DNA of 49,083 nt, counting the filler, from Porpidia crustulata (lineage: Eukaryota): NCBI GenBank assembly GCA_964255105.1. It is 2 parts of 2 records of this genome, joined end to end, with 100 filler letters (N's around TTAATTAATTAA, not from the genome) between each part and the next. Parts side by side here need not be neighbours in the genome. Positions count along the whole stretch, not along the records: positions 24,599 to 49,083 come from CAXUWE010000058.1; 1 more part is not named here. One strand, given 5' to 3'. Shown piece after piece: positions 15,320-39,533 of this stretch (within the stretch, counting starts at the first letter, position 1; each line of letters opens with the position of its first letter). The notes beneath the pieces are model-generated. The model had not been told where the DNA came from. It worked only from the letters and a program-made list of their open reading frames with translations, and made no database searches. The position numbers and the translations under genes were made by a program.

Positions 15320-18300
15320 AGGATAGTGAAACTTTGGATACTGTTTCGCGAGCAGTGACCGCAAGGCCAATTTCTCGCCAGTTACAGTCTGATATCAACT
15401 GGGGACCTAACAAATCCTGGTCGATCGACAGGATCCTGCTGGAACAGCTCCTCCGGAAAACGGAAACCTTGACCCTGCCTTTGCTCCCCTGGGACCTTAG
15501 CGTATTGGTGTCTAGGATGGCTGGTGTAGTGGGACGAAAATTTTCGAGGCGAACCACGAATCTCTCCTTCCAAAGCGAGCGTGGTGGACAGCGCCGGTGA
15601 TTTGTAGAATTGCGATTGAACAGAAAGTAGAGCGGAATCAGGCAGAGTCGTTACAAAATCGAGTACTTGATGTTTTCAACCGTCATAAACGAGCGTACAG
15701 CAGAAAAACACGAAACGAGTGTGTAAAACGTCAGGAGGCGGGGTACGAGGATGAGGAGGGGGGTGAAGGGTTTCAGGGTCACGACCGAGGATGAAGCCTT
15801 CCAATATGTATGATAATGTGATGCAACTAGCATAGGGTACCTGACAGTCTTCAGTGGCAGCTAAGACTTGGCCGTATAATCAACAGACAAATGTTCGAAA
15901 ATAGAAACAATACCGAACGGAGGGAATGGAGCGAGCGACTTATGTACTGCAACCTAGCTCGCGAGGTTCGGGTGATGTCTGCACGGTAAAGGAAGTTTAT
16001 TAAACGCGATCTAGATTCGGTGATAGTGTGGTCTTGCAGAGTCACAACGAGGTATCCACCGGGGAGGGGGGGTTTGGATTAAGGGTCGGTGAGAAGGTTA
16101 AGGTGCGTGTATTTTTTGGAGATTCGACAGTAAGCTAGGGGAGAGGCGGTCGGTGGAGGCGTGCCTTGAGCATGACCGTCATGAGGGGGAAGAAGCAGAA
16201 GCAGAAGAAGTAGAAGGGGGAAACGACACTAGTATGAGGCGCTTTGACAGGCGTCGGTCTGTTTCACGCGACCAACGAGACGAAAGAGAAGGTGAGAGAG
16301 GGGAGGGGGCGTTCAGCTGAGAGGCAAGGAGGTAAGAAGGCCAAGGTGAGATGGCAGCTGGTAGGATGGCAAGCGAGGGAATACAGTATCAGAGCTGGGC
16401 AGCTGGCAGACTGGAAGACTCGACTGGCAATTCCTTAACTCCTAATTTCTTAGTCAACCTTGACCTCTTTCATTAGTCTGGAACCCCCAACAGGCAACAC
16501 GAAGCGGGCCGAACAAGCTTGGAATTGAAGCGCACATGAGGCGCAGAATCATGTGCTTGTGCTTGTGCTTGCTCGGGCCAAGTCATGTGTGTGTGCGAGA
16601 CTGCGTGTGGTTTGCGAATTAGGACGATACTGCTAAGGTAGTGTTCGAGCGCCCGCGAGGCTTCCGCTCCGAGTCAAGTCCCACAACTTATAGAAAGCAA
16701 GTAAGCCACAATTGTGTGCAGTACCCAGAGTCCCGCATCTTCTACTATCTATCTACCCTCCGCGCCTCCACGCAGGAATGACGGTGTCGTTGTTGTCATA
16801 TCATTGGGCATCTAAATGTAGGATACTTATGTACGACATAGGCCCACGCGAGGTGAGCGAGTATTTAGCTTGCCAAGCTCCCCCCATCCCTAAGACACCT
16901 AATACAAGCGCCCAATCGTTCATGATAGTTGGAAAAGACTTTATTCTTCCGCATCTCCCTGAAAGAGTCATTGTTGCGAGATAGCTGGACACCGACCACT
17001 CACTGCTACCTTTTGGACTATTGGCTCATTGCAAAGACACGTAGAAATAACTTAGAGTATCCTTTATTTAGATTGCTACATGACTGTCACATACGTACAT
17101 GTGCATCTACGTCTACATATGCACAATAATCCACCGATCGTCACAGGGATCGTATCTACTACTTTGCCTACTTAAGTTTGATGTTGCGCTCAGAAGCAGG
17201 AGCACCATGTCTTGGCCCGTCTTCCCGCAGCGACGACATTGAGTAGCCCAATGCTCAAGGTCCTACAGTGCCGACTTATTGAGGTAACGATGATATGTAC
17301 GAAGGATAATGCGCAGTACCTTGCGTTGAACCGACGTACCGTATGGATTGGTACTTGAATTATCCAGTCGTCAGTGTGCTCTATGTAGGTACCGTAGCAC
17401 TTGAGGTGCAGCCTTGTCAGACCGACTTCATTGCCGGCGGGGCTCGATTGTGCAATGAGGATGGCTGTCCGACATGACCGCAGCGGAGCAATCATGTTTT
17501 GCACAGCCTCCATTCCATCTGATTGATTTGAGGTTGACAAGCGGTCGACGTGTATTTTTCTTTACCGTTATGGCGTGTTCCTGTAAGCGAAGCTTTCGTT
17601 ATTGGCGGTTCGTGGAGCTCATTGTGCCGCAGGTATCTTGGCATTTTGGGTATTGCCCATTATACTGTCCGAGAAGCGACGCAAGGAGGGTCGAGTGTAC
17701 TCACAAAGGCCAGAGGCTCTCTAAAGGGCTGAGTTTGTGGCTTCTCATACTGTACTTGACGAGATGGGCAGGTTGAAAGCTGCACCAGTCGACGATGTCG
17801 ACGGGACATCCCATGCCAGTCTCTTGCGGCCCTGACGAGTGTGCAGCCGTTCAGCTTCACCTGAACTGCCTAGTGACAGACCAGACATACCCCTTTTGGC
17901 TTTTACCTTTTAGTTGCTGGCATGGCATGCCGGCGCTGCGTTCGGTGGAGGCTAGTTGCTCATGCCACATGCCACCACAAGCATCAAAGTCCAATTATAG
18001 ATTTATAGATCCCGGCGCTAACTAGCTTGGGCCCATCGCTTGGCTTTGCTGTTTCGAGAGATGCGATTGGGACTGATGGTTTAGTGAACACACTTCGTCG
18101 ACAATAAGAATGCTACCCTAAGCTGACTGTCTCCCCAAGGTTGCCAGCAGAAATAAGTAACCAATGAAGAAGATCTAATAACGCAATCTCAATATCATTA
18201 CTATCAATGATGCAAATATTGGGTCAATGCAACACTGCACCCCTTTGTGGAGAGGTCATATGTTTATACCGTGCGCTCCCGTCCCTTGCTTCCGCAAAGT

Positions 18301-19318
18301 CCTTGATGAGGTGATGAGGTCTCATGATCAATGGCGGATGTCGTCGTACGATCAATGAAGATTGCGCTTACTAATGGTGCAAAGCATCTCCAATTTCGCC
18401 TCAGCCGCCTCCTTGCGCGCAACGCCGCCACCAGCGTCGAATGATGAATAATCGTCCCGACACAACGATCGGGACGATGTCCGGCATGATTACCTACGCC
18501 AGAGTGGGAGGTCTCCTAGTGGTAATAACTTTCCACGCCATCCTACCAGCCAACCGCGGCCCAGGACCTGTTGTTTTCGAGAGCGCTGGAGGAATTTGGC
18601 ACCACACGACCTAGTATTTTCGGAATTACAAGGATAACCAAACAGACATTACCTATGCAATATCCCGAGGAACTTGCCGATTGACATGATCGTCTGCAGT
18701 CAAGTTCTCAGGCTGGATCTTCAGCTCGCTCTCAGCCCAGAATAAGCTGAGCCTGTGGATACCAGTAGCTTTCATTTCCAGCAGGAGATGCAATCGCTAC
18801 TTGGATTGGAACCTACGTCGAACGGTGGTGCCTCTACTACAAAATTAAGACCTCTTCTTCCCTATGGGCTAAAAAAGTCTCAAGGTCCGTTGTGCGAAGG
18901 CATGCTTCTCGAGCAGGCAAGATCACCGCGATACTTTAAAGAGAATTGCTGGTGCCATGGAACTTCTATACTGTAATGCAAGTGCTATGCCCGGAAATGA
19001 ATCCTGCAAACCAAAATCTGTAGGCAAGCCGCTGGTGAACTGCTCCTCCATGAAAGCAGCCCCAAAGATCAGGAAAAACGCCGGGTATGTATGCAACATG
19101 AACGACTATAATCCCATACCTACATAGCTTCCTTGCCCAGAAACACCAGTAATGAACCGCCATCGCTGTAACAAGATGGCTGCGTAGCAGCTCTATTTAT
19201 ATCGAGAACCGTGCATGCGTTATTATGATCCCTAAATCCTTCCATAGTCCGTTGACGTCATCACAGCATGTATCTTCGTACAATTGCATTGGCTTCTGTT
19301 CGAGATCGAAAATCTACA

Positions 19319-24498: not shown

Positions 24499-24598
24499 NN
24501 NNNNNNNNNNNNNNNNNNNNNNNNNNNNNNNNNNNNNNNNNNTTAATTAATTAANNNNNNNNNNNNNNNNNNNNNNNNNNNNNNNNNNNNNNNNNNNN
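24499..24598. other. Assembly gap with artificial six-frame-stop linker (N44-TTAATTAATTAA-N44)
   Basis: Two N runs enclose TTAATTAATTAA at 24543-24554, a palindrome that gives stops in all six frames. The total length is exactly 100 nt. Confidence 0.95.
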
Positions 24599-24638
24599 GT
24601 GTTAGTTGTGGTTGGTGGGGAGGGGGTGGGGGGCTTAC

Positions 24639-27998: not shown

Positions 27999-28653
27999 AT
28001 TCGCCCCTTTCCTGGAGTGCAGAGTGTTACTTTCTCGGACGAAGAAAGTTCTGCGAGGAAAATGGGGAGGTTTGACGCCCTATCCTAGTTGAGGGTCGGG
28101 AACCTTATGATAAAAGGATTAATTGATGCTTTCCACTAGATGGATTTCCCTTACACGACCGGCCGTTGCATTATCGCCAAGATCAGTTAGGCCAGATCTA
28201 ACATCGATGCTGTCAGTCTCGTGATATCGAAGCCTCCATTTAAACTAGCTCACAATATGATGTTCGGAAAGGAACTCATATAAAACTGGGACCCACGGCT
28301 TTATATATAGCACCTTGATATATATAGTGGATTAGTCAAGAACAAAACGCGTTCGCATTTTATGAATGTTGAAGGATAATATATATAATGGAGAGTGTAG
28401 CAGAGAACAAGTGCGAAGGCCCGTTTCTTATAGAAATCAAGACCTCGAAAGATGTAGCGATCAACATTCGCACGCCAAGAAGCACTTCACTTTCGTTGAT
28501 TGAATCGCTTACATTTCGTGATAAAAAATTGAAGATTCGACTTCGTGAAGAAATTTTCTTCACACAGATACACATGCGTATGCAACTATGTATGGAATTT
28601 CACTTCATCTGTTAAGAGAAAGTGCTGAAAAATTATATCTATAGTGAATCGGT

Positions 28654-28844
28654 AAAGAAAAAGTGCGTTTGCAGGTTGAATCAAGGCCAATTCTTTCACA
28701 CGAATACTGCTGGTGCCTAGCAACTGATCCAAAACAGTATTGCAGTAGTGGCCTTGCTGTGGCTTCACCAGACGTCGACCCGCTCCTTCTGCAGCCATCC
28801 GATTTTGCGCAGCTTAATGATGAAGCTTGGAACATTATCTGCGT
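28654..28844 (+). repeat. Diverged direct repeat, copy 1 (partner at 39326-39533)
   Basis: Aligned by eye; shared blocks include AAAGTGCGTT, TCACACGAAT, CCAAAACARTATTGYAGT, TGGCCTTGCT, CGATTTTRCGCAGCTTAA, GAAGCTTGGA and TTATCTGCGT. Confidence 0.85.
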
Positions 28845-30141: not shown

Positions 30142-32481
30142 TCAATTTAGTCGCAAGTTACTCATAACCTGATCACGAACATGACGCTGGAATTGCCAAT
30201 CATCCTTCTTATCTCGGATGCCTCGTGAGAGACATGTTTTGACAGCCCAGGCGTACCTGGACCCCACAGTATGGGCAAGCTTCTTATCGCATAGTCGTAT
30301 AAAGGTATCCCTCAATATCTCTGGATCATTGATGTTTGAGAATGCCTTTCTTTCTGGATCTAACGCATATATTGGACGCCAAAATGCAATTTCGAGCAGG
30401 AGGATACCCTATTAATGATAATCAGAGCCATCTATTTATTGTGATCGGATATCGTCGCTTACTCACCAATGCATAGATGTCATGCTCCCTTCTAAATTTC
30501 ATCGGCCGTCCCCAGCGATCTGGATGAAGGTAGAGGTTGCTTCTCAAATCCCAACTAGCATGCATGAGGCTTTCCGCTGCGGTTGGTCATGAACAGTCGA
30601 AGCCGAGAAGGAAAGGCTTGGAAAGATCAGCCATGTCTTTCGGCTTCTTGTCCGAAGAGTTTTCATCCCTATCAACGCTAGAACAGAAAAATGTCAGGAC
30701 GTTCTCGCTTTTGATATTCTTATGCAACCAGCCAATTGAGTGGAGCCTAACGACCGCGGCAGCCACTTTGTAAGCTAGCTCCACGCGAAGTTCGAGCGGT
30801 ACATTCGGAGTCTCTCGGTAGCATTCTGCTAGGATCAAGTGAGACGAGGCCGAGTACTGCTCGGGAATTGCGTAAATGAATCCTAGGCGAGGCCGGTGTA
30901 AATGCTCACGAACAATGCCTTTTCCAGCTAGGGTGCAGAATATTTCGTCCTTTGGTTCTGCATGCAATGTTGCAACCTTCTCAGCTTGCATAATTGCTGC
31001 TGCGGGTATCTCTTTCGTGGCAATGCCTGTCCGTGCAGAGTCTGGAACTTGGTAGTAGTATTCCACTATCACTTCGACTTCTCCTATCATCCCTCTCCTG
31101 AGTCGTTCTCCGTCCTTAGCAGGATCCTTGAAACGGACCTTCGTGTCCTCGAAAGACTCAGCCTTGGGTACCAGCTCTTTCAGTAACTCAAGTCGCATTG
31201 AAACCCTGTTCGCCAGTCCGGACATCCTGGTTCCTTCTATCGCCGCTAGATTCTGGAGCTGTCTTGGACTAGTATTTGCAATACAGTCCTCAATGGTCTC
31301 TAAGAATGCTTGGCTCTTTCTTTTCAGATTTTTGGTAATCTCAACAATGTAAGCCTCATCTGGTCCCATGGGCGGAATAGGTCTGTCAACCACGGAAATA
31401 AGATCTTCGAAATGATGCACAAGACTCGCTTTCGCAGCAAGCGGGATACACGTTGCATCTACACAATCGTCTTCCAGCTTTTGTTCGCAAAGTCTCTGCC
31501 CGACATGTAGTACGCTCCTCGCTTTCGTGTACGCTTCGCTTATTTCGATAGTGGAAACAATCCTGGGTGAGGAAATAGTCAACCACTGCATTATTCTTTC
31601 TTTCTGTATTCCGCTTGGCTCCTCAAAGAGCGATATGTCCATGCGAAAAGAAGGCGATTGATCACCTTGCAGATGAGCGAACAATTCATTAAATAACACA
31701 AGTTTACGAAGTGTTATACTTTCCCCGGCTATTGGAGCGTAGAATGGTTGTTGTTGTAGGTTGGACTCTTTCTGGAGGAGACGCTTGTACAAGGTAGTAA
31801 TTTCAAAGCTTCCGTATTCCTGTAAATTTTGTCTCATCTCCATCATAAGGGCTTGAGTAAATGATGGATAAACTTGCCCGACACCGGGCGTACGCAATCC
31901 CATTGCAGCGGCAGCTAAGATTTCGACTTTGTGAGAGGCCCGGCTTCTCACGACTTGGCCGGCAAAGCAGCAGTCTAACAGGATCAAGACATCGGATTCC
32001 GCGTCTTCCACAATGGGTTGAATCAAATGCCAGCGGACTGTTGGTCCACCAACCTTTTTTCTATGCATCCAAATTAGACCAGCAATGCTCTCAAATCTAG
32101 TGACAGCAACGAATCGGGCCCTTACGCTGCCCATACCGCTTGCCTTTCTCCCGCTAAGTCTGGGTCGCCATGGCCTGCGTAATAAATTAAAATCAAGTTC
32201 CCAAAGGCTCCATACGTGTAGAGGAAGTCCGATACTGCACGGTTGAGAGAGTCTTGTGGTCTGTCAGTGTGTATGAAAAATAGCTGCACACGATAACCAA
32301 AATCTGTCCTTAGGATTGCAGCAAATTGCTGCACTTCTGCAAGGCAACCAAGATCATCGTCTTGCCACAATAGCATCAACGCCGTTACCAATTTGTAATA
32401 TCTTCCCCTTTGTGGTCGATACTGCCTCAGTCGCGCTGTTAGATCTGCTTTGAGGGAGGTGGTCTCCTTCGATTCCATCAT
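30142..32481 (-). CDS. Caspase-like (clan CD/C14-type) domain + helical linker + pseudokinase; 3 exons; one in-frame TGA at 30587-30589 (possible pseudogene allele)
   Basis: Exons 32481-32126, 32060-30467 and 30408-30142. The dyad motifs are LILIYYAGHG and DVLILLDCCFAG. The C-terminus reads LHSIGWLHKNIKSENV, PFLLGFDCS*P, NLYLHPDRWG, HDIYAL|GILLLEIAFWRP and GSRYAWAVKTCL, the pattern of fungal HeLo-associated kinase-like domains. Confidence 0.8.
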
Positions 32482-32696: not shown

Positions 32697-35600
32697 ATGG
32701 CTTCAAGCATCATTGCTACCTCCGTGGATCGTCAAAGTCAATGGTGGTCAGACCTGGACACCTGGAAATCTCACGCCAACCCTATTGCATCTCCTAGAAT
32801 TACCCCGTATTGGGACTTCCTACTTGCTGCCGCAAGTTCTAAATCCGACTTTCTGACACTCTCGGGTCTCGGCCTGTACTCCGATAGGTATCGCACTGCT
32901 GGTGCTGGAGCTACTTGTATCGTTCAGATTGGAAAGACAAGTCGTGGCAAGCTTGTCGCCGTCAAGGTTGACCGTGCAGCGTCACAACCGTTGCAGCGAA
33001 CTGCTCCTGGTCAATACGAACAGACCCTTTCTCAACTCGCAAAGGAATTACGGCTACTGAGCAATGAGAAACTTAGACAGGATCCCTATATCATAGACTT
33101 GCTTGGTTTTGGAATAGAAAGCCTTGGCGGCTCGATTTCGTGCTTCCTGGTCACAGAATATTGCGAGGTGCGTTCCCGTTTTCCGGATTCTCCCAAACCT
33201 TTCTGCAGTGACCATCTTGATCATTTCGAGAAGATTAAAGCCTCTCGCATAGTGTTTCACCCTAGCAAGTACTTTAGAACCTTCCACAGATCGAGCAGTA
33301 GCCTTGACTAATGCTTTATACTCGGCATAGTTAGGTGATCTCAGGCATTTTCTGAAAATGAAATGGCCAGTATCCGTCCATCAAAAGCTTGGTTTTTGCC
33401 GAGACATTGCGCACGCACTGAAATCGTTGCATCGACTGAACATTTGCCACGGAGATGTTAAGTTGGAAAACGCTCTGGTCTCTGCGTCCTCTGTGCACAC
33501 CCACTGGCATCTCAAGCTCTGCGACTTCGGCCATGCACAAATAGGCCAAGGGGACGGCCCAGATACCATGGTAACGCCCACAATTGGCACCCGCTTACTC
33601 TGCGCTCCCGAGTTGTACCAAAGCCAATCGTCGTCTTTGAGAACTATGAGCATCTCACAAGCCATCGCCACAGACATTTTCTCCTATGGTCTCCTGATTT
33701 GGGAAGTCTTCAAGCATGGCGAGTCATTCTTCAATGATGCATGGCTGAAGGATTCCAGTATTCGTCGTGATGGCGCCAACGTAGAAGCGAAAGAAGATTT
33801 CATGCTTACTCTTCACAATGAAGAGCTTTGTGAGCTTGCAGTGAAATCCTTGACTATTCTCATGACTGGAGGAGACAAGAGGTTGGAGCGTATCACTAAG
33901 CTCATCTATAGTACACTCACTTATAATTCTCAACTGAGGCTGACTATCTGCGATCTGATTCCTATTCTGGGAGACGATTCGCACAAAAGGTGACATGATT
34001 CAATCCATCCTCACTTCTACTCAACTAAGAGCAACAGCGACGACTCTGTTTCTAAGGAGAAATTAGACAGGCCAGAGAGTACTCGCCATGATGCTGCCTC
34101 AGCTATGATACAAGCATCATCCATAAGAGAGGTAACGTGTAAATAAGAAATGGTGTTTTCCTGGATCTGCCCTAATTCTGCTAGATCTTCAACTTCGCCT
34201 TTGAAAACAGCTGCTTTGATATGGATAGTATCCCCTTCGCGTTTTGCCAAAACATTATCGAAGACTTGAAGAGAATTGAAAGTAATTCAGACATGACTGG
34301 CTCAGAACGAGCTAAGGCGGATATGCTGCTAAGTGAATGCTACGTTCATGGCATGGGAGTGAGTACAGACTCTACCATGATGCTCTATTGGCTGCATCGA
34401 GCTGCAGTTCTAGGATCAAGAAAAGCTGCTGCATGGTACCACCGTGTCAACATTGCCATCAACGTTTCACCAGCGCAATGCTCAGAGGCTATTGATGGAA
34501 AAGAATTTGATCTTGCGTGGCTAGACTTACCGAGCGAGGGTTATCTTCTAGCACGCATTCGGCATTTTCAACACACTCGAAAGATAGTAACATTAAGGGA
34601 ACGTCAATCTTTTACATCAGGGGGCTTATGTACAGAGATACCACCAAAATCTACGTATCGCTTACCAACGTTCAACGAAGATCAGCAGGATGAGCTGAGC
34701 TTATTACATTTTGCAGCCTTTGCAGACAGTAAGGTGAGTGTCAGCAATCCCACAATCTAGCCATACTGGCAACCCAGCTGTAATGGTGGAGGAGGTAGCG
34801 TCTTTCGCCTCTCATTTGCTGTCCCTAATCTTGGACTGGAAACACCCTCTTTACTGACCACTGGATTCGCCACCAGGCTTTACGTAACCTCGAAATTCGC
34901 GAAACATCCAACACGACAAAGTTTGGACGTAATCTGCTGTTCTATACTTGCTTTGCAGGTGATATAGTCAATCTGCGATACCTGATTAAATGCCAAGGTG
35001 CCCTAGCCCAAGATGATCGTTTTGGAATTAATCCGCTGCACTTGTGCATATTCTTCGATTCAGAAGAAGTTGAAGAGGCTGTGTCTACACTACTGAAGGC
35101 GGGCGCGAACATTGAATCGTCTTCAAACTTCATTTGTTGGGAAGATCATGACATCGGCCTCTTCGGTACAGCAATCGAGTGGGCAGTTCATTGTCGTCAT
35201 CTTCGTCTCGTCCAAGTCCTGCTGCAGCATGGGGCAGCGCTCAAGGGTCTGGATATCGCCGTCAGTCTGTTTTACTACGAAATTATAGACTTCATGCTGG
35301 AGCAAGATGATTGCAGCGCAAGGAAGGAAGAGTGCCTATCGGCGATTCATGTAGTCGACCGATCTTTTCGTCACTGGATTAGTCACGGTAAAGACCACCT
35401 ACATGCGATATCGAGGACTTTTGATGTTCTTCAGAGCCATCGTGTTTCCATTAATAGTCAAATAATAAGGACAGAAGACAGCAACTTGCTCATCAGCGTT
35501 ATTCAAAGCACATGCACGTCTGAGGACTTCGAAACTATCCGACAACTTGTCACTAGAGGCCAGGATATTAAGCATAAAGACGGTATGGGTTATGATCTGC

Positions 35601-36835
35601 TTGGGTGGGCTATCCAAAGATCGGGGCAGGACGAAGCATGGGCTCCAATCTTGGACTTTATCTTAGATTACTTCACCGTCGAGGAATTAGAGGGCCCTTT
35701 CGTTTCTGAGGAATCATATCTTCATTATGCAATCATCTCAGATAGCGTCGGTGCCAAAGCTCTCCTCCGCAAAGGCGTGAACATTGACCTAGTCTCAGAA
35801 GATGTGCTCGGCTATACGCCTCTATTGTATGTTGTTGAGGGTGATAAATCAGGTGAGATGATAGATCTACTCTTAAGTCATGGCGCGAGCATTGAACCTG
35901 CAGGGCTTTTGAGACAGACCCCGCTTGAGACAAGACTCTCAGGTCTTCAGCGTACTGGCCAATCAGTTGACAAACTCCTAGAGCATTACTCTTTAAACCG
36001 TCTGTGCGTACGTAGCCTTCATTCTACATTTGAACGCGTCATTGGGGGTCAAGAAAGGCCGGATAGAACCCGGGATGACTGTCTTGAAGGTTTTCGACAT
36101 ACTATTGGAAACCCATCTGTCCGAAAAATCCTCGATGAGCCAGATTCAACCGGTCCGGAAGGCTCGCTCTTGCACAAAGCTGCATCACTGCTGCAGCCAT
36201 ACCTGGTGCAACTACTCCTAGAGGCTGGGGCCGATGTAACACGGACAACCAGAACCGTTCTTGGGGATCTCAATGCATTACAAATTGCTGCAGAAAATGC
36301 AAGGGCATTATGTTATTTGAATCTGAGTGGCCCTTTGCAAATCCACGGCACACTTGGGAAATCCAGGCAAGGTGCGTTTCAGGTGGCTTACATGATCCTC
36401 AGCGAGCATCAATCACAGCAAGATATCGCGTTTCAGGGTATCAGTCCACTCCATCTTGCTGTAAAAATAGGTGATCTCGAGAGTGTTCAAAATTTGATCG
36501 CTTCACATCCAGAAGCTAAACAAAAATTGGGTCGGTGGCCTGGCTACCTACACAAGGTAAAGCCTTGTGATCTGATCAGCTATCGTTATAGGATCATCAA
36601 TCCCTACTTGACTCTATCTGAGATTCAAGAAGCTCCGAATCTCTCACAGCCTCAGTTTCGCTTTGAAGGGTCTATTCAGGAGTTGAATAAAGCGATGCAG
36701 GAACATCCGACAAGCTTTCAAGACATAATCACTGAAGGTGAGGAGATCAATGGAAACCCGATCAAAGTGTGCTATTCCTGGCGACGCGTTCTTGAACATA
36801 TAACGAAAATTTGGGACTTGGTGAAAGTTGAGTAG
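32697..36835 (+). CDS. Ser/Thr protein kinase + SEL1-like repeat + ankyrin-repeat protein, about 5 exons
   Basis: Exons about 32697-33167, 33331-33989, ~34030-34130, 34185-34733 and 34877-36835. Kinase motifs are GAGATCIV, VAVK, KELRLL, HGDVKLEN, KLCDFG, APE and DIFSYG. SEL1-like segment: LSECYVHGMGVSTD...YWLHRAAVLG. Ankyrin motifs include GINPLHL, GYTPLLY..LLLSHGA, LLHKAA..LLLEAGADV and SPLHLAV. Confidence 0.85.
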
Positions 36836-37601
36836 CCGCTCGCCTCATAAACCTAGGTCTCAAAAAATAAGTATGCACATCCCATAATTGGAAACCCTAC
36901 TCAAGAATGAGCTTCGATGTTGACTTTCAGAGGACCAAATGCCACCTTGTTTAGCTCAGAGAACTAGCGTCTCTACGCAAGAAGCGTGCTTCAACTCTCT
37001 CTGAGTAGACTGCGCCAGTAGCTAGGTCTTTCAACTCGAAGTGATGATTCGGCAGCGCCATAGTGATCTGGAATGGACCCAAAGCAGCTCGAAAGGAGGG
37101 TTTAAGGATGTATACGGTTTCTCCGATTTCGAATGGGAACTGTGTTAATATTTAACACAGCTGGATCTTTAACAACAAGACTAGAGTCTCGTACATCCAG
37201 AGGCACAGAATATTTGGCAACATATGATCTCCAATCGATGTCAAAATCCTAATTGCGGATCAAAGACAGATCGCGAACAGCATGTTGGGAGATTACTACT
37301 TCATCTGATGTATTCATTTGATTCGCCTTCGACGACGTGGAGCTCTTAGGTGTGTTTTCGGTAGACTTCTCCATAGCGATAAAGCTAAAGTTTGATGGCA
37401 CTGGCAAGACGAGACTGGAATGAAATGTTATGAAATCTAGCATAAACGGTGCCGGGGCGCAGAGTGAACGTCGTACAGCCTGACCCCACCTGATACAGTT
37501 TCAGGCAGTAGTCTTAGCTGGTGACGTGGCAAGCCCGGTAAGCACGCCGAATGGCCGATGGGAATTGGTTTCATGCAGGCCAGCGTGCTCCATGATAGAA
37601 G

Positions 37602-38869
37602 ATGCAGCAAGAGCCCATTCACCAAAATTGTACACACAACGTGGCGCTGCTAGCAATGATTAAATTACAGAAGGGTAAAGGCATCAATTACCAAGGGCTC
37701 TTCGGGACCCAAACCGCTAATAACGTTTCTTGTGTAGTGGAAGAATACCAGCGAGGATATTCTCGTCTGGCCGCTTTCATGAGCTTAGATGCGAATTTCT
37801 CGATGGTCAAACGATTTGACTTCTTACATATGAGACACTTGCTCTATCTCCAAGACAGCCTCATATATCAGCAAGAACGACTAGACACCTGCGATGATGC
37901 TGATGACATCCAACTACATCACAGCAGTCGACGCCAGGATGACAATGAGACAAGGAAAGCTTTGATGCAAGAGCTCGAAGTTCTGCTGAACAAGTATGGT
38001 TAGGCAATCTTTTTGGTCTTTTTCTCAACTATCCTACATGGCATAGATAATCATGAGCTGAGACACAACTTGTTTACAAGACGAGACGGTTCTACGGTTC
38101 GGGAAACTCCTAGACCTAAACTCTGTCTCGGATAGTAGCTATGAGAGCGTCAAGAACTGGGTTGATGGCAACAAGCCGCTGGTACGATCTGAGTCCCGAC
38201 TCTTCCTCCAGGAAGTCAGAGATAGGGATATCATTGCCCTGAAACAAACCGACGAAAAGGGGGACTTCGCCCAGCTTCTCATCCGACTTGCCAAATTCGT
38301 TCATCCGAGGCTCTCGCGCAAAGTAGGTCCTGTGATGGTGCTTGACGTACTGGGAGTGTACTGACGTGTTGTCGTTCAAGCTGCTGTCAAGCAATGTCAG
38401 CAAGGCACATTTTCGCGCACTCCTTTACTCATGCCATCATTCTTATTATCGCCGGCACATGAGCCTCATACTGACCATTGTGTATGCATACATTCAGGCA
38501 TTCCTCGCCCAAAGCAAAGACACCAACATCTTCCTCTACCAACCGGAGAACTTAAGGCGCATGGAGCTCATCATGACCGTGATCGTTGCCTCATTCTGGC
38601 TGATCACTCCAACTTATGCCTTCTACTACGTCTCACGCCCAGTCACTCGCGGTTTTTTGTTCTTGGTGTGCCTCGTAGGTTTCTCCATTATAGTGAAGCC
38701 TAAGAGTACCAACGCCAAGTATGAATTGCTTCTTGCTCTGACAGCGTAAGCTTCTTGTATTATCCTTTTTCCATTCAATTGAACAGAGGTGGAGAGATTG
38801 ACATTGGACTCCAGGTATTGTGCTATCCTGAGTGCATTTTACTCAAATACCGGCGACTCTAAGAAATGA
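37602..38869 (+). CDS. DUF6594-like fungal membrane protein, about 5 exons
   Basis: Exons about 37602-37674, 37738-37998, 38081-38322, 38498-38745 and 38815-38869. The N-terminal VEEYQRGYSRLAAFMSLD..FSMVKRFDFLHMRHLLYLQ, the middle SVKNWVDGNKPL..E and three C-terminal hydrophobic helices ending ..LTAYCAILSAF match the DUF6594 pattern as I recall it. The start codon is uncertain. Confidence 0.78.
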
Positions 38870-39325: not shown

Positions 39326-39533
39326 AAAGAACAAAGTGCGTTCGCAATTCGTACAAAGGTATTGTCGGTCACACGAATCCTGTTGATGCCTGGCAGCGGA
39401 CCCAAAACAATATTGTAGTGATGGCCTTGCTATGCCTTCATCAGTGTGATACTGATACTGATGTCGATCCACTCCCTTTGCAGCTATTCGATTTTACGCA
39501 GCTTAAGAAGGAAGCTTGGAGTGTTATCTGCGT
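39326..39533 (+). repeat. Diverged direct repeat, copy 2 (partner at 28654-28844)
   Basis: Same blocks as copy 1, with a short TGATAC-repeat expansion at about 39447-39461. Confidence 0.85.

Follow-up and report, generated by a model that had tools for sequence, protein, structure and literature searches.

The described systems that come closest to the locus analysed here are the RIPK3–MLKL pair, the fungal protease clusters of the gasdermin and HET-Q2-like type, the fungal HeLo/HELL-pseudokinases, the metacaspases, and a sensor–helper pair of wheat. In mouse MLKL, the RIPK3 sites are S345, S347, and T349 (PMC11893596, in the portions available); the available portions of PMC9022980 contain nothing on phospho-sites. 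According to figure legend text in PMC12881547, proteases that control gasdermins can be fused to “predicted kinase-like domains,” and HELL domains are present on kinase and pseudokinase proteins. The available sections of the same article list fungal HeLo-pseudokinases and protease–effector clusters without naming an activating kinase or a trigger.

Here, we studied a window (the whole stretch of 49,083 nucleotides from Porpidia crustulata, assembly GCA_964255105.1) in which a gene predicted to encode a caspase-like protease fused to an MLKL-like pseudokinase is linked to genes for a separate kinase, a small barrel-like protein, and a DUF6594 protein. The fusion resembles MLKL in combining a helical bundle, a putative brace, and a pseudokinase with a GF[D/E] motif, and MLKL provides its best sequence matches in the PDB; an activation-loop Ser/Thr falls at the cluster of RIPK3 sites, and a separate, apparently live kinase is a likely upstream partner (compare the available portions of PMC11893596 and PMC12881547). 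Unlike that of MLKL, the fungal bundle is internal, truncated, and without a hydrophobic first helix, and a protease is fused in front of it; unlike RIPK3, the fungal partner kinase carries Sel1-like and ankyrin repeats and is encoded next door, with two extra genes in the cluster. The gasdermin and HET-Q2-like clusters (PMC8851545, available text) similarly place a multidomain protease gene beside the gene of a likely membrane effector, whereas here the protease is Peptidase_C14-like rather than S8 or CHAT, the linked gene is DUF6594 rather than gasdermin, and the cluster further encodes a small barrel protein and a separate kinase. Fungal HeLo/HELL-pseudokinase proteins (PF14479 plus PF24476; PMC12881547, available sections) share the pseudokinase family, but keep a hydrophobic first helix and come without protease, DUF6594, or small gene. 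The wheat R3NLR/R3AK sensor and helper MLKL (10.64898/2026.08.07.743466, available portions) are likewise paired genes with an MLKL-like executor; in contrast to the caspase cluster, the wheat sensor is an NLR and the wheat 4HB kills directly. In its proposed working, the caspase cluster is RIPK3–MLKL-like upstream and gasdermin-protease-like downstream; having neither a complete bundle for reaching membranes nor a gasdermin Pfam match among its shared genes, it appears to belong to neither class.

A literature search covering main texts found no paper on the four-gene cluster; Dataset S1 of PMC8851545 may list related architectures, and the word “kinase” has 0 occurrences in the main text of PMC8851545. 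The cluster is not described in the available portions of PMC10197012, PMC12258605, 10.1101/2022.03.16.484565, PMC13304501, or 10.64898/2026.08.07.743466, and the search likewise found no paper on DUF6594 or DUF7580.

Gene structure and premature stop

The caspase–pseudokinase gene lies on the second contig of the window (positions 24,599 to 49,083, CAXUWE010000058.1), which belongs to a fungal assembly of 22.9 Mb. Because the run of Ns at about 24499–24598 joins two contigs, gene order across it is not real. The gene model occupies the minus strand, with three exons (32481–32126, 32060–30467, and 30408–30142) and 738 codons. Exon 1 (residues 1–119) holds the catalytic His104 (codon 32172–32170) and is followed by a 65-nt GT–AG intron (32061–32125) that is found at the same place in relatives. 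Exon 2 encodes the second half of the protease, including Asp148-Cys-Cys150 (31975–31967), then a WLTxxSP segment, a helical remnant, and most of the pseudokinase; after a second GT–AG intron (30409–30466), exon 3 supplies the end of the C-lobe and the true stop. The motifs on which the original prediction was built, YYAGHG (32184–32167), LLDCC (31981–31967), HKNIKSEN (30724–30701), and GFD (30604–30596), were all recovered, as was the first intron. The splicing of the His and Cys exons into one gene, also proposed there, is borne out because intron 1 occupies an identical codon position in 6/6 related loci listed and because 40 of 179 collected proteins align end to end with the spliced window model. 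The second intron (30466–30409), an in-frame stop at codon 610, the helical remnant, now recognized as HeLo-like, and three linked genes (32697–38869) were absent from that prediction.

The stop is a TGA (30587–30589, minus strand) that directly follows GFDCS; with it, the protein loses its activation segment and the larger part of its C-lobe. Arg occupies the position in 121/122 homologues. Among four sequencing runs covering the site, three from relatives at ~93–95% identity have an Arg codon and the fourth has the stop; this fourth run is probably the source and is therefore not independent. The contig of run X1 over the site has a depth of 11 and a single letter only. Placement of the TGA inside an intron was ruled out, since conserved kinase motifs continue in frame beyond it and relatives carry Arg there. 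Among the 40 differences listed, 38 of them coding (304 further differences exist), the changes specific to the window lineage comprise 15 synonymous and 10 non-synonymous changes plus the stop, so the reading frame seems to have been constrained until recently and the nonsense break of the gene in P. crustulata looks recent.

The family and its protease domain

A word search returned 39 homologous proteins; with a profile, 395 representatives scored E 1e-30 or better, 150 of which were listed. Named homologues come from Rusavskia, Bathelium, Ophiobolus, Lophiostoma, Cercophora, Lasiosphaeris, Biscogniauxia, Mollisia, and other genera, which we take to represent four ascomycete classes; the gene is one of a family conserved among ascomycetes. 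In Pfam, exon 1 matches Peptidase_C14 at E 0.0018, which is below the cut-off, and the last exon matches DUF7580; the Peptidase_C14 cut-off is passed by the homologues P0008, P0023, and P0027. In a 129-row alignment the dyad is strongly conserved among rows that have a residue there, with His in 56 of 61 and Asp-Cys-Cys in all 106. For homologue P0044, which is 35% identical to the window protein, the AlphaFold model has a pLDDT of 89.7, and its residues 35–246 match metacaspase 4 (6w8r) with Z 19.1 and an rmsd of 2.7 over 200 aligned residues, which supports the predicted caspase-like (C14, clan CD) fold of the N-terminal domain.

Metacaspases share this fold and the His-Gly and Asp-x-Cys dyad motifs. 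Unlike them, the modelled protein begins with a 28-residue helix in place of the proline-rich prodomain of type I metacaspases, bears a putatively regulatory helical/pseudokinase tail, and has no match at E < 0.05 when its protease half is searched by sequence against the PDB. Foldseek and PDB structure searches with the full model returned kinases only, and CHAT (PF12770) had no Pfam match in the window pieces or the 33 family proteins scanned. A segment with invariant Trp and Pro, WLTxxSP (31547–31654, minus strand), follows the protease and also occurs in stand-alone caspase paralogues. The protease probably cuts after Arg or Lys, a preference predicted because Asp precedes the Cys and from available passages of PMC13304501. 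Since homologue P0106 joins the second half of the protease and the WLT segment to an unrelated 700-aa tail, the protease module is shuffled among partners. As a lead only, one atlas cluster groups 92 arthropod caspase-plus-kinase proteins at a feature score of 0.86 against P0044.

The pseudokinase and its activation loop

The C-terminal domain (30145–31144, minus strand, spanning intron 2) has Glu at the position of the beta3 Lys in 116 of 124 rows of the 129-row alignment, no catalytic Asp, and GF[D/E]. Residues 430–735 of the P0044 model match kinases with a best Z of 21.0 and rat MLKL with Z 18.4, so that structure search does not single out MLKL among kinases. By contrast, when a sequence profile was compared with solved chains, the top six were all MLKL (best E 4.9e-10); with a smaller 32-row profile, MLKL ranked only seventh and was not significant. 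Together these comparisons support the view that the domain is a dead, MLKL-like kinase, as had been predicted.

Six residues past the conserved Arg, the activation segment carries a Ser or a Thr in every one of 122 rows. In the window this is Ser616 (30569–30571, minus strand), which lies beyond the premature stop. A profile alignment pairs the position with the middle Ser of the S-x-S-x-T of mouse MLKL, which by spacing is S347.

A HeLo-like remnant between protease and kinase

In fungi, this type of kinase domain was expected to stand behind a HeLo domain, and its nearest relatives do carry HeLo heads. Six helices separate protease and kinase in the P0044 model, corresponding in the window protein to about residues 292–414 (31175–31543, minus strand), which we read as a truncated HeLo-like bundle with brace-like helices. 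HHalign matched this middle region, with a probability of 92% and E 6e-7, to heads taken from eleven HeLo-like pseudokinases at related loci; disjoint subsets of those heads gave E of about 1e-4 twice and 0.004 for the third, against E > 0.15 for reversed controls and E > 0.27 for a set of five helical controls. With three classical HeLo heads (group A) the region had no HHalign match (E 0.15), and HeLo (PF14479) had no Pfam match in the window pieces or family proteins scanned. In the atlas, a structural match from residue 305 leads to a DUF7580/HeLo cluster with a TM of 0.80 by its row. Modelled alone, the region has a best Z of 7.7 to generic helical hairpins, and neither MLKL nor HeLo is listed among the matches; each of the two models places two helices ahead of the kinase, and the alignment to MLKL 56–178 is collinear at 0.8 bits only.

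Peak hydropathy of the first helix is 1.3–2.3 in HeLo-like heads vs. 0.7–1.15 at the corresponding position of seven fusion proteins. By profile comparison, helices 2 and 3 and the last helix of the HeLo-like head are kept, as is the probable brace, and only the hydrophobic first helix is lost. The original prediction had proposed that a protease took over the position of a pore-forming HeLo domain; the protease does sit in front, where it replaces the hydrophobic first helix, but the retained remnant rules out a clean swap of effectors.

The partner genes

Head-to-head with the caspase–pseudokinase gene, with start codons 215 bp apart, lies a five-exon gene for a kinase with Sel1-like and ankyrin repeats (32697–36835, plus strand, about 1244 aa). 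Its open frame contains a complete set of motifs (the beta3 Lys in VAVK, the aC Glu, HGDVKLEN, DFG, and APE), so that the predicted partner has the sequence motifs of an active protein kinase. All 13 of 13 partner kinases read HGD. Non-RD kinases are linked to immunity. The gene is without a close paralogue in the P. crustulata genome (one match at E 1e-8), and a search for long homologues of its ankyrin exon gave generic ankyrin proteins. No contig in the related runs spans both head-to-head genes. The database proteins P0165 and P0126 are predicted fusions of the caspase–pseudokinase with its kinase–ankyrin neighbour and are probably merged gene calls.

Farther along are a small three-exon gene (36951–37374, minus strand, about 105 aa) and a five-exon DUF6594 (PF20237) gene (37602–38869, plus strand, about 290–340 aa depending on splice choice), both readable without stops. 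The small protein ends in a 60-aa SH3/Tudor/KOW-like stretch, a fold name that is a lead only; it is without a Pfam family, has one homologue, and has atlas leads at 0.87–0.90 only. The DUF6594 protein has a helical N-terminal part and hydrophobic stretches toward its C-terminus. A Ser-[Ser]-Arg-Arg loop between two of its helices (window 37930–37940), with Ser-Arg invariant in 7 of 7, offers a candidate site of cleavage by an Arg/Lys protease. Complex prediction for P0032, the first DUF6594 exon, and the small protein of locus L012, run without alignments, scored 0.00, a value that counts neither for nor against binding. DUF6594 family members occur on at least 17 contigs of the P. crustulata genome, and three of its five stand-alone caspase paralogues have one within about 3 kb.

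Linkage of the four genes

A scan of metagenomes yielded 42 loci, nine of which contain both protease and pseudokinase and form six distinct groups. A homologous kinase–ankyrin gene lies beside six of these nine caspase-type loci, head-to-head at L009 and L010, tail-to-tail at L013, L014, and L015, and in tandem at L019; a seventh, L011, has an ankyrin end at the contig edge, and none was seen at L012, which is a short locus, or at L021. When the rest of the DNA of the window and of 16 loci was compared all against all, exactly two further shared genes emerged, DUF6594 and the small gene; no neighbour had a Pfam match to gasdermin. By profile, DUF6594 is present at 8/9 and the small gene at 7/9 caspase-type loci, and each is present at 0/14 caspase-less loci of 10 kb or more, which are of the HeLo/HELL-pseudokinase type and have a divergent kinase gene at 9/14. 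The four genes are kept at 30–55% identity across five gene orders, represented by the window, L009, L011/L012, L013, and L019.

Distances between pseudokinases correlate with those between partner kinases (rho 0.59, p 1e-4, 13 pairs), a correlation that host relatedness could also give, and distances between proteases with those between DUF6594 proteins (rho 0.63, p 0.016, 8 pairs), to which shared host ancestry may contribute. The window, L009, and L013 cluster together in both the pseudokinase and the partner-kinase tree and L019 does not; L019 has no detectable small gene, and its kinase falls outside the other caspase partners. At L021, none of the three partners is found within its 8 kb, which include only about 20 bp of upstream sequence. 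There, a Goodbye-NACHT-TPR NLR lies tail-to-tail with the caspase–pseudokinase gene (L021:3058–7756) and may be an alternative sensor.

Flanking repeats and neighbouring genes

The four genes lie between two copies of a degenerate direct repeat (about 190 bp), the left at 28660–28844 and the right at 39333–39533, which are 75–81% alike and 10.7 kb apart; a shorter third piece lies at 28318–28360. The P. crustulata genome holds no further near-identical copy, and the repeat may be what is left of an old mobile element, or the scar of an insertion. A DUF3435 gene (L009:14262–15278) lies 2.3 kb from the cluster at L009; DUF3435 is a family that we take to be the recombinase of Starship elements, and the cluster may therefore be cargo there.

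Related loci have NLR, HET, CHAT-TPR, and HeLo genes as neighbours. A gene with a Pfam HET domain lies upstream at L013 (4128–7985), where similar-looking ORFs occur on both sides of the cluster, also at 17860–19107, and a TPR-CHAT protease gene adjoins a HeLo-like pseudokinase/kinase–ankyrin pair at L041:1089–4313. Downstream of a kinase-TPR gene, a kinase–helical–pseudokinase fusion, which gives this type of pseudokinase yet another head, is found at L038:2645–10618 and L039:207–6307. The P. crustulata genome itself also contains a classical HeLo-pseudokinase tail-to-tail with a gene of two kinase domains (L051:1286–5956).

Proposed mechanism and alternatives

We lean toward reading the four genes as a relay that runs from partner kinase to pseudokinase to protease to DUF6594 and serves defence or cell death, the central gene being recently broken here. 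The ankyrin and Sel1 repeats of the partner kinase would sense a trigger, and the kinase would phosphorylate the activation loop of the pseudokinase, as RIPK3 does on MLKL. The brace and the truncated HeLo-like bundle would relay the change; the bundle would no longer insert into membranes and would instead free or cluster the protease. The protease, probably cutting after Arg or Lys, would then act on the DUF6594 membrane protein, the small barrel protein serving as an adaptor or a brake, and the relay would probably end in membrane damage and in a regulated cell death that serves defence or non-self recognition. Most likely, the family began with a fusion that placed the protease from a caspase/barrel/DUF6594 trio in the HeLo-pseudokinase from a kinase/pseudokinase pair. 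In P. crustulata, the stop at codon 610 probably switches the pathway off. A narrower and somewhat doubtful proposal is a hybrid death pathway in which a non-RD repeat kinase acts through an MLKL-like switch on a fused caspase-like protease, and DUF6594 represents a new class of membrane effector.

The same linkage and the same invariant Ser/Thr could also arise from the opposite logic, in which the partner kinase, by constantly phosphorylating or binding the pseudokinase, holds the protease off, and the protease is freed onto DUF6594 once the kinase is lost or inhibited, through a microbial effector or on fusion with a strain of another type. The broken protease gene beside open kinase, small, and DUF6594 genes is the safe order of loss for such a poison–antidote pair, but this is one allele only and drift gives the same order; the alignment with the activating sites of MLKL favours activation, and we regard a guarding kinase as unlikely, if worth keeping in mind. 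Somewhat less probable still is the same relay without death, in which cleavage would serve stress or developmental signalling by freeing a soluble part of DUF6594 or remodelling a membrane complex. The literature found describes no function for DUF6594, the family is spread over at least 17 contigs of this genome, and the shared neighbours lack a gasdermin-family match, all of which would suit such a role; however, NLR, HET, CHAT-TPR, and HeLo genes neighbour related loci, and small clusters of this kind are typical of fungal cell-death systems (PMC12881547, available sections).

We give little credence to a reading in which chance fused the kinase/pseudokinase pair with the caspase/barrel/DUF6594 trio, variable islands carry both passively, and the pseudokinase does not control the protease. 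Both modules do occur separately, degenerate repeats surround the cluster, and a DUF3435 gene lies beside L009, but the four genes have been kept through five orders at 30–55% identity, with the dyad and the activation-loop Ser/Thr invariant. It is highly improbable that the TGA is an assembly error, is bypassed by read-through or RNA editing, or leaves a 609-aa product acting as a functional released protease, for although the frame was under constraint until recently and the stop is seen in one run only, probably the source, that site shows no alternative letter at depth 11 in run X1, and editing would yield Trp where the family has Arg.

If the relay from kinase to DUF6594 holds, the cluster would supply a candidate kinase, one invariant candidate phospho-site, a protease read-out that is easily assayed, and a candidate substrate, and would make it possible to test with purified proteins whether RIPK3–MLKL logic runs in fungi. 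It would also provide a first proposed mechanism for the orphan families DUF6594 and DUF7580. Should the hybrid death pathway be true, necroptosis logic upstream would be coupled to pyroptosis logic without gasdermin downstream, and a caspase-family protease would be controlled directly by a pseudokinase switch. The family would then show how fusion can give a death switch a different output.
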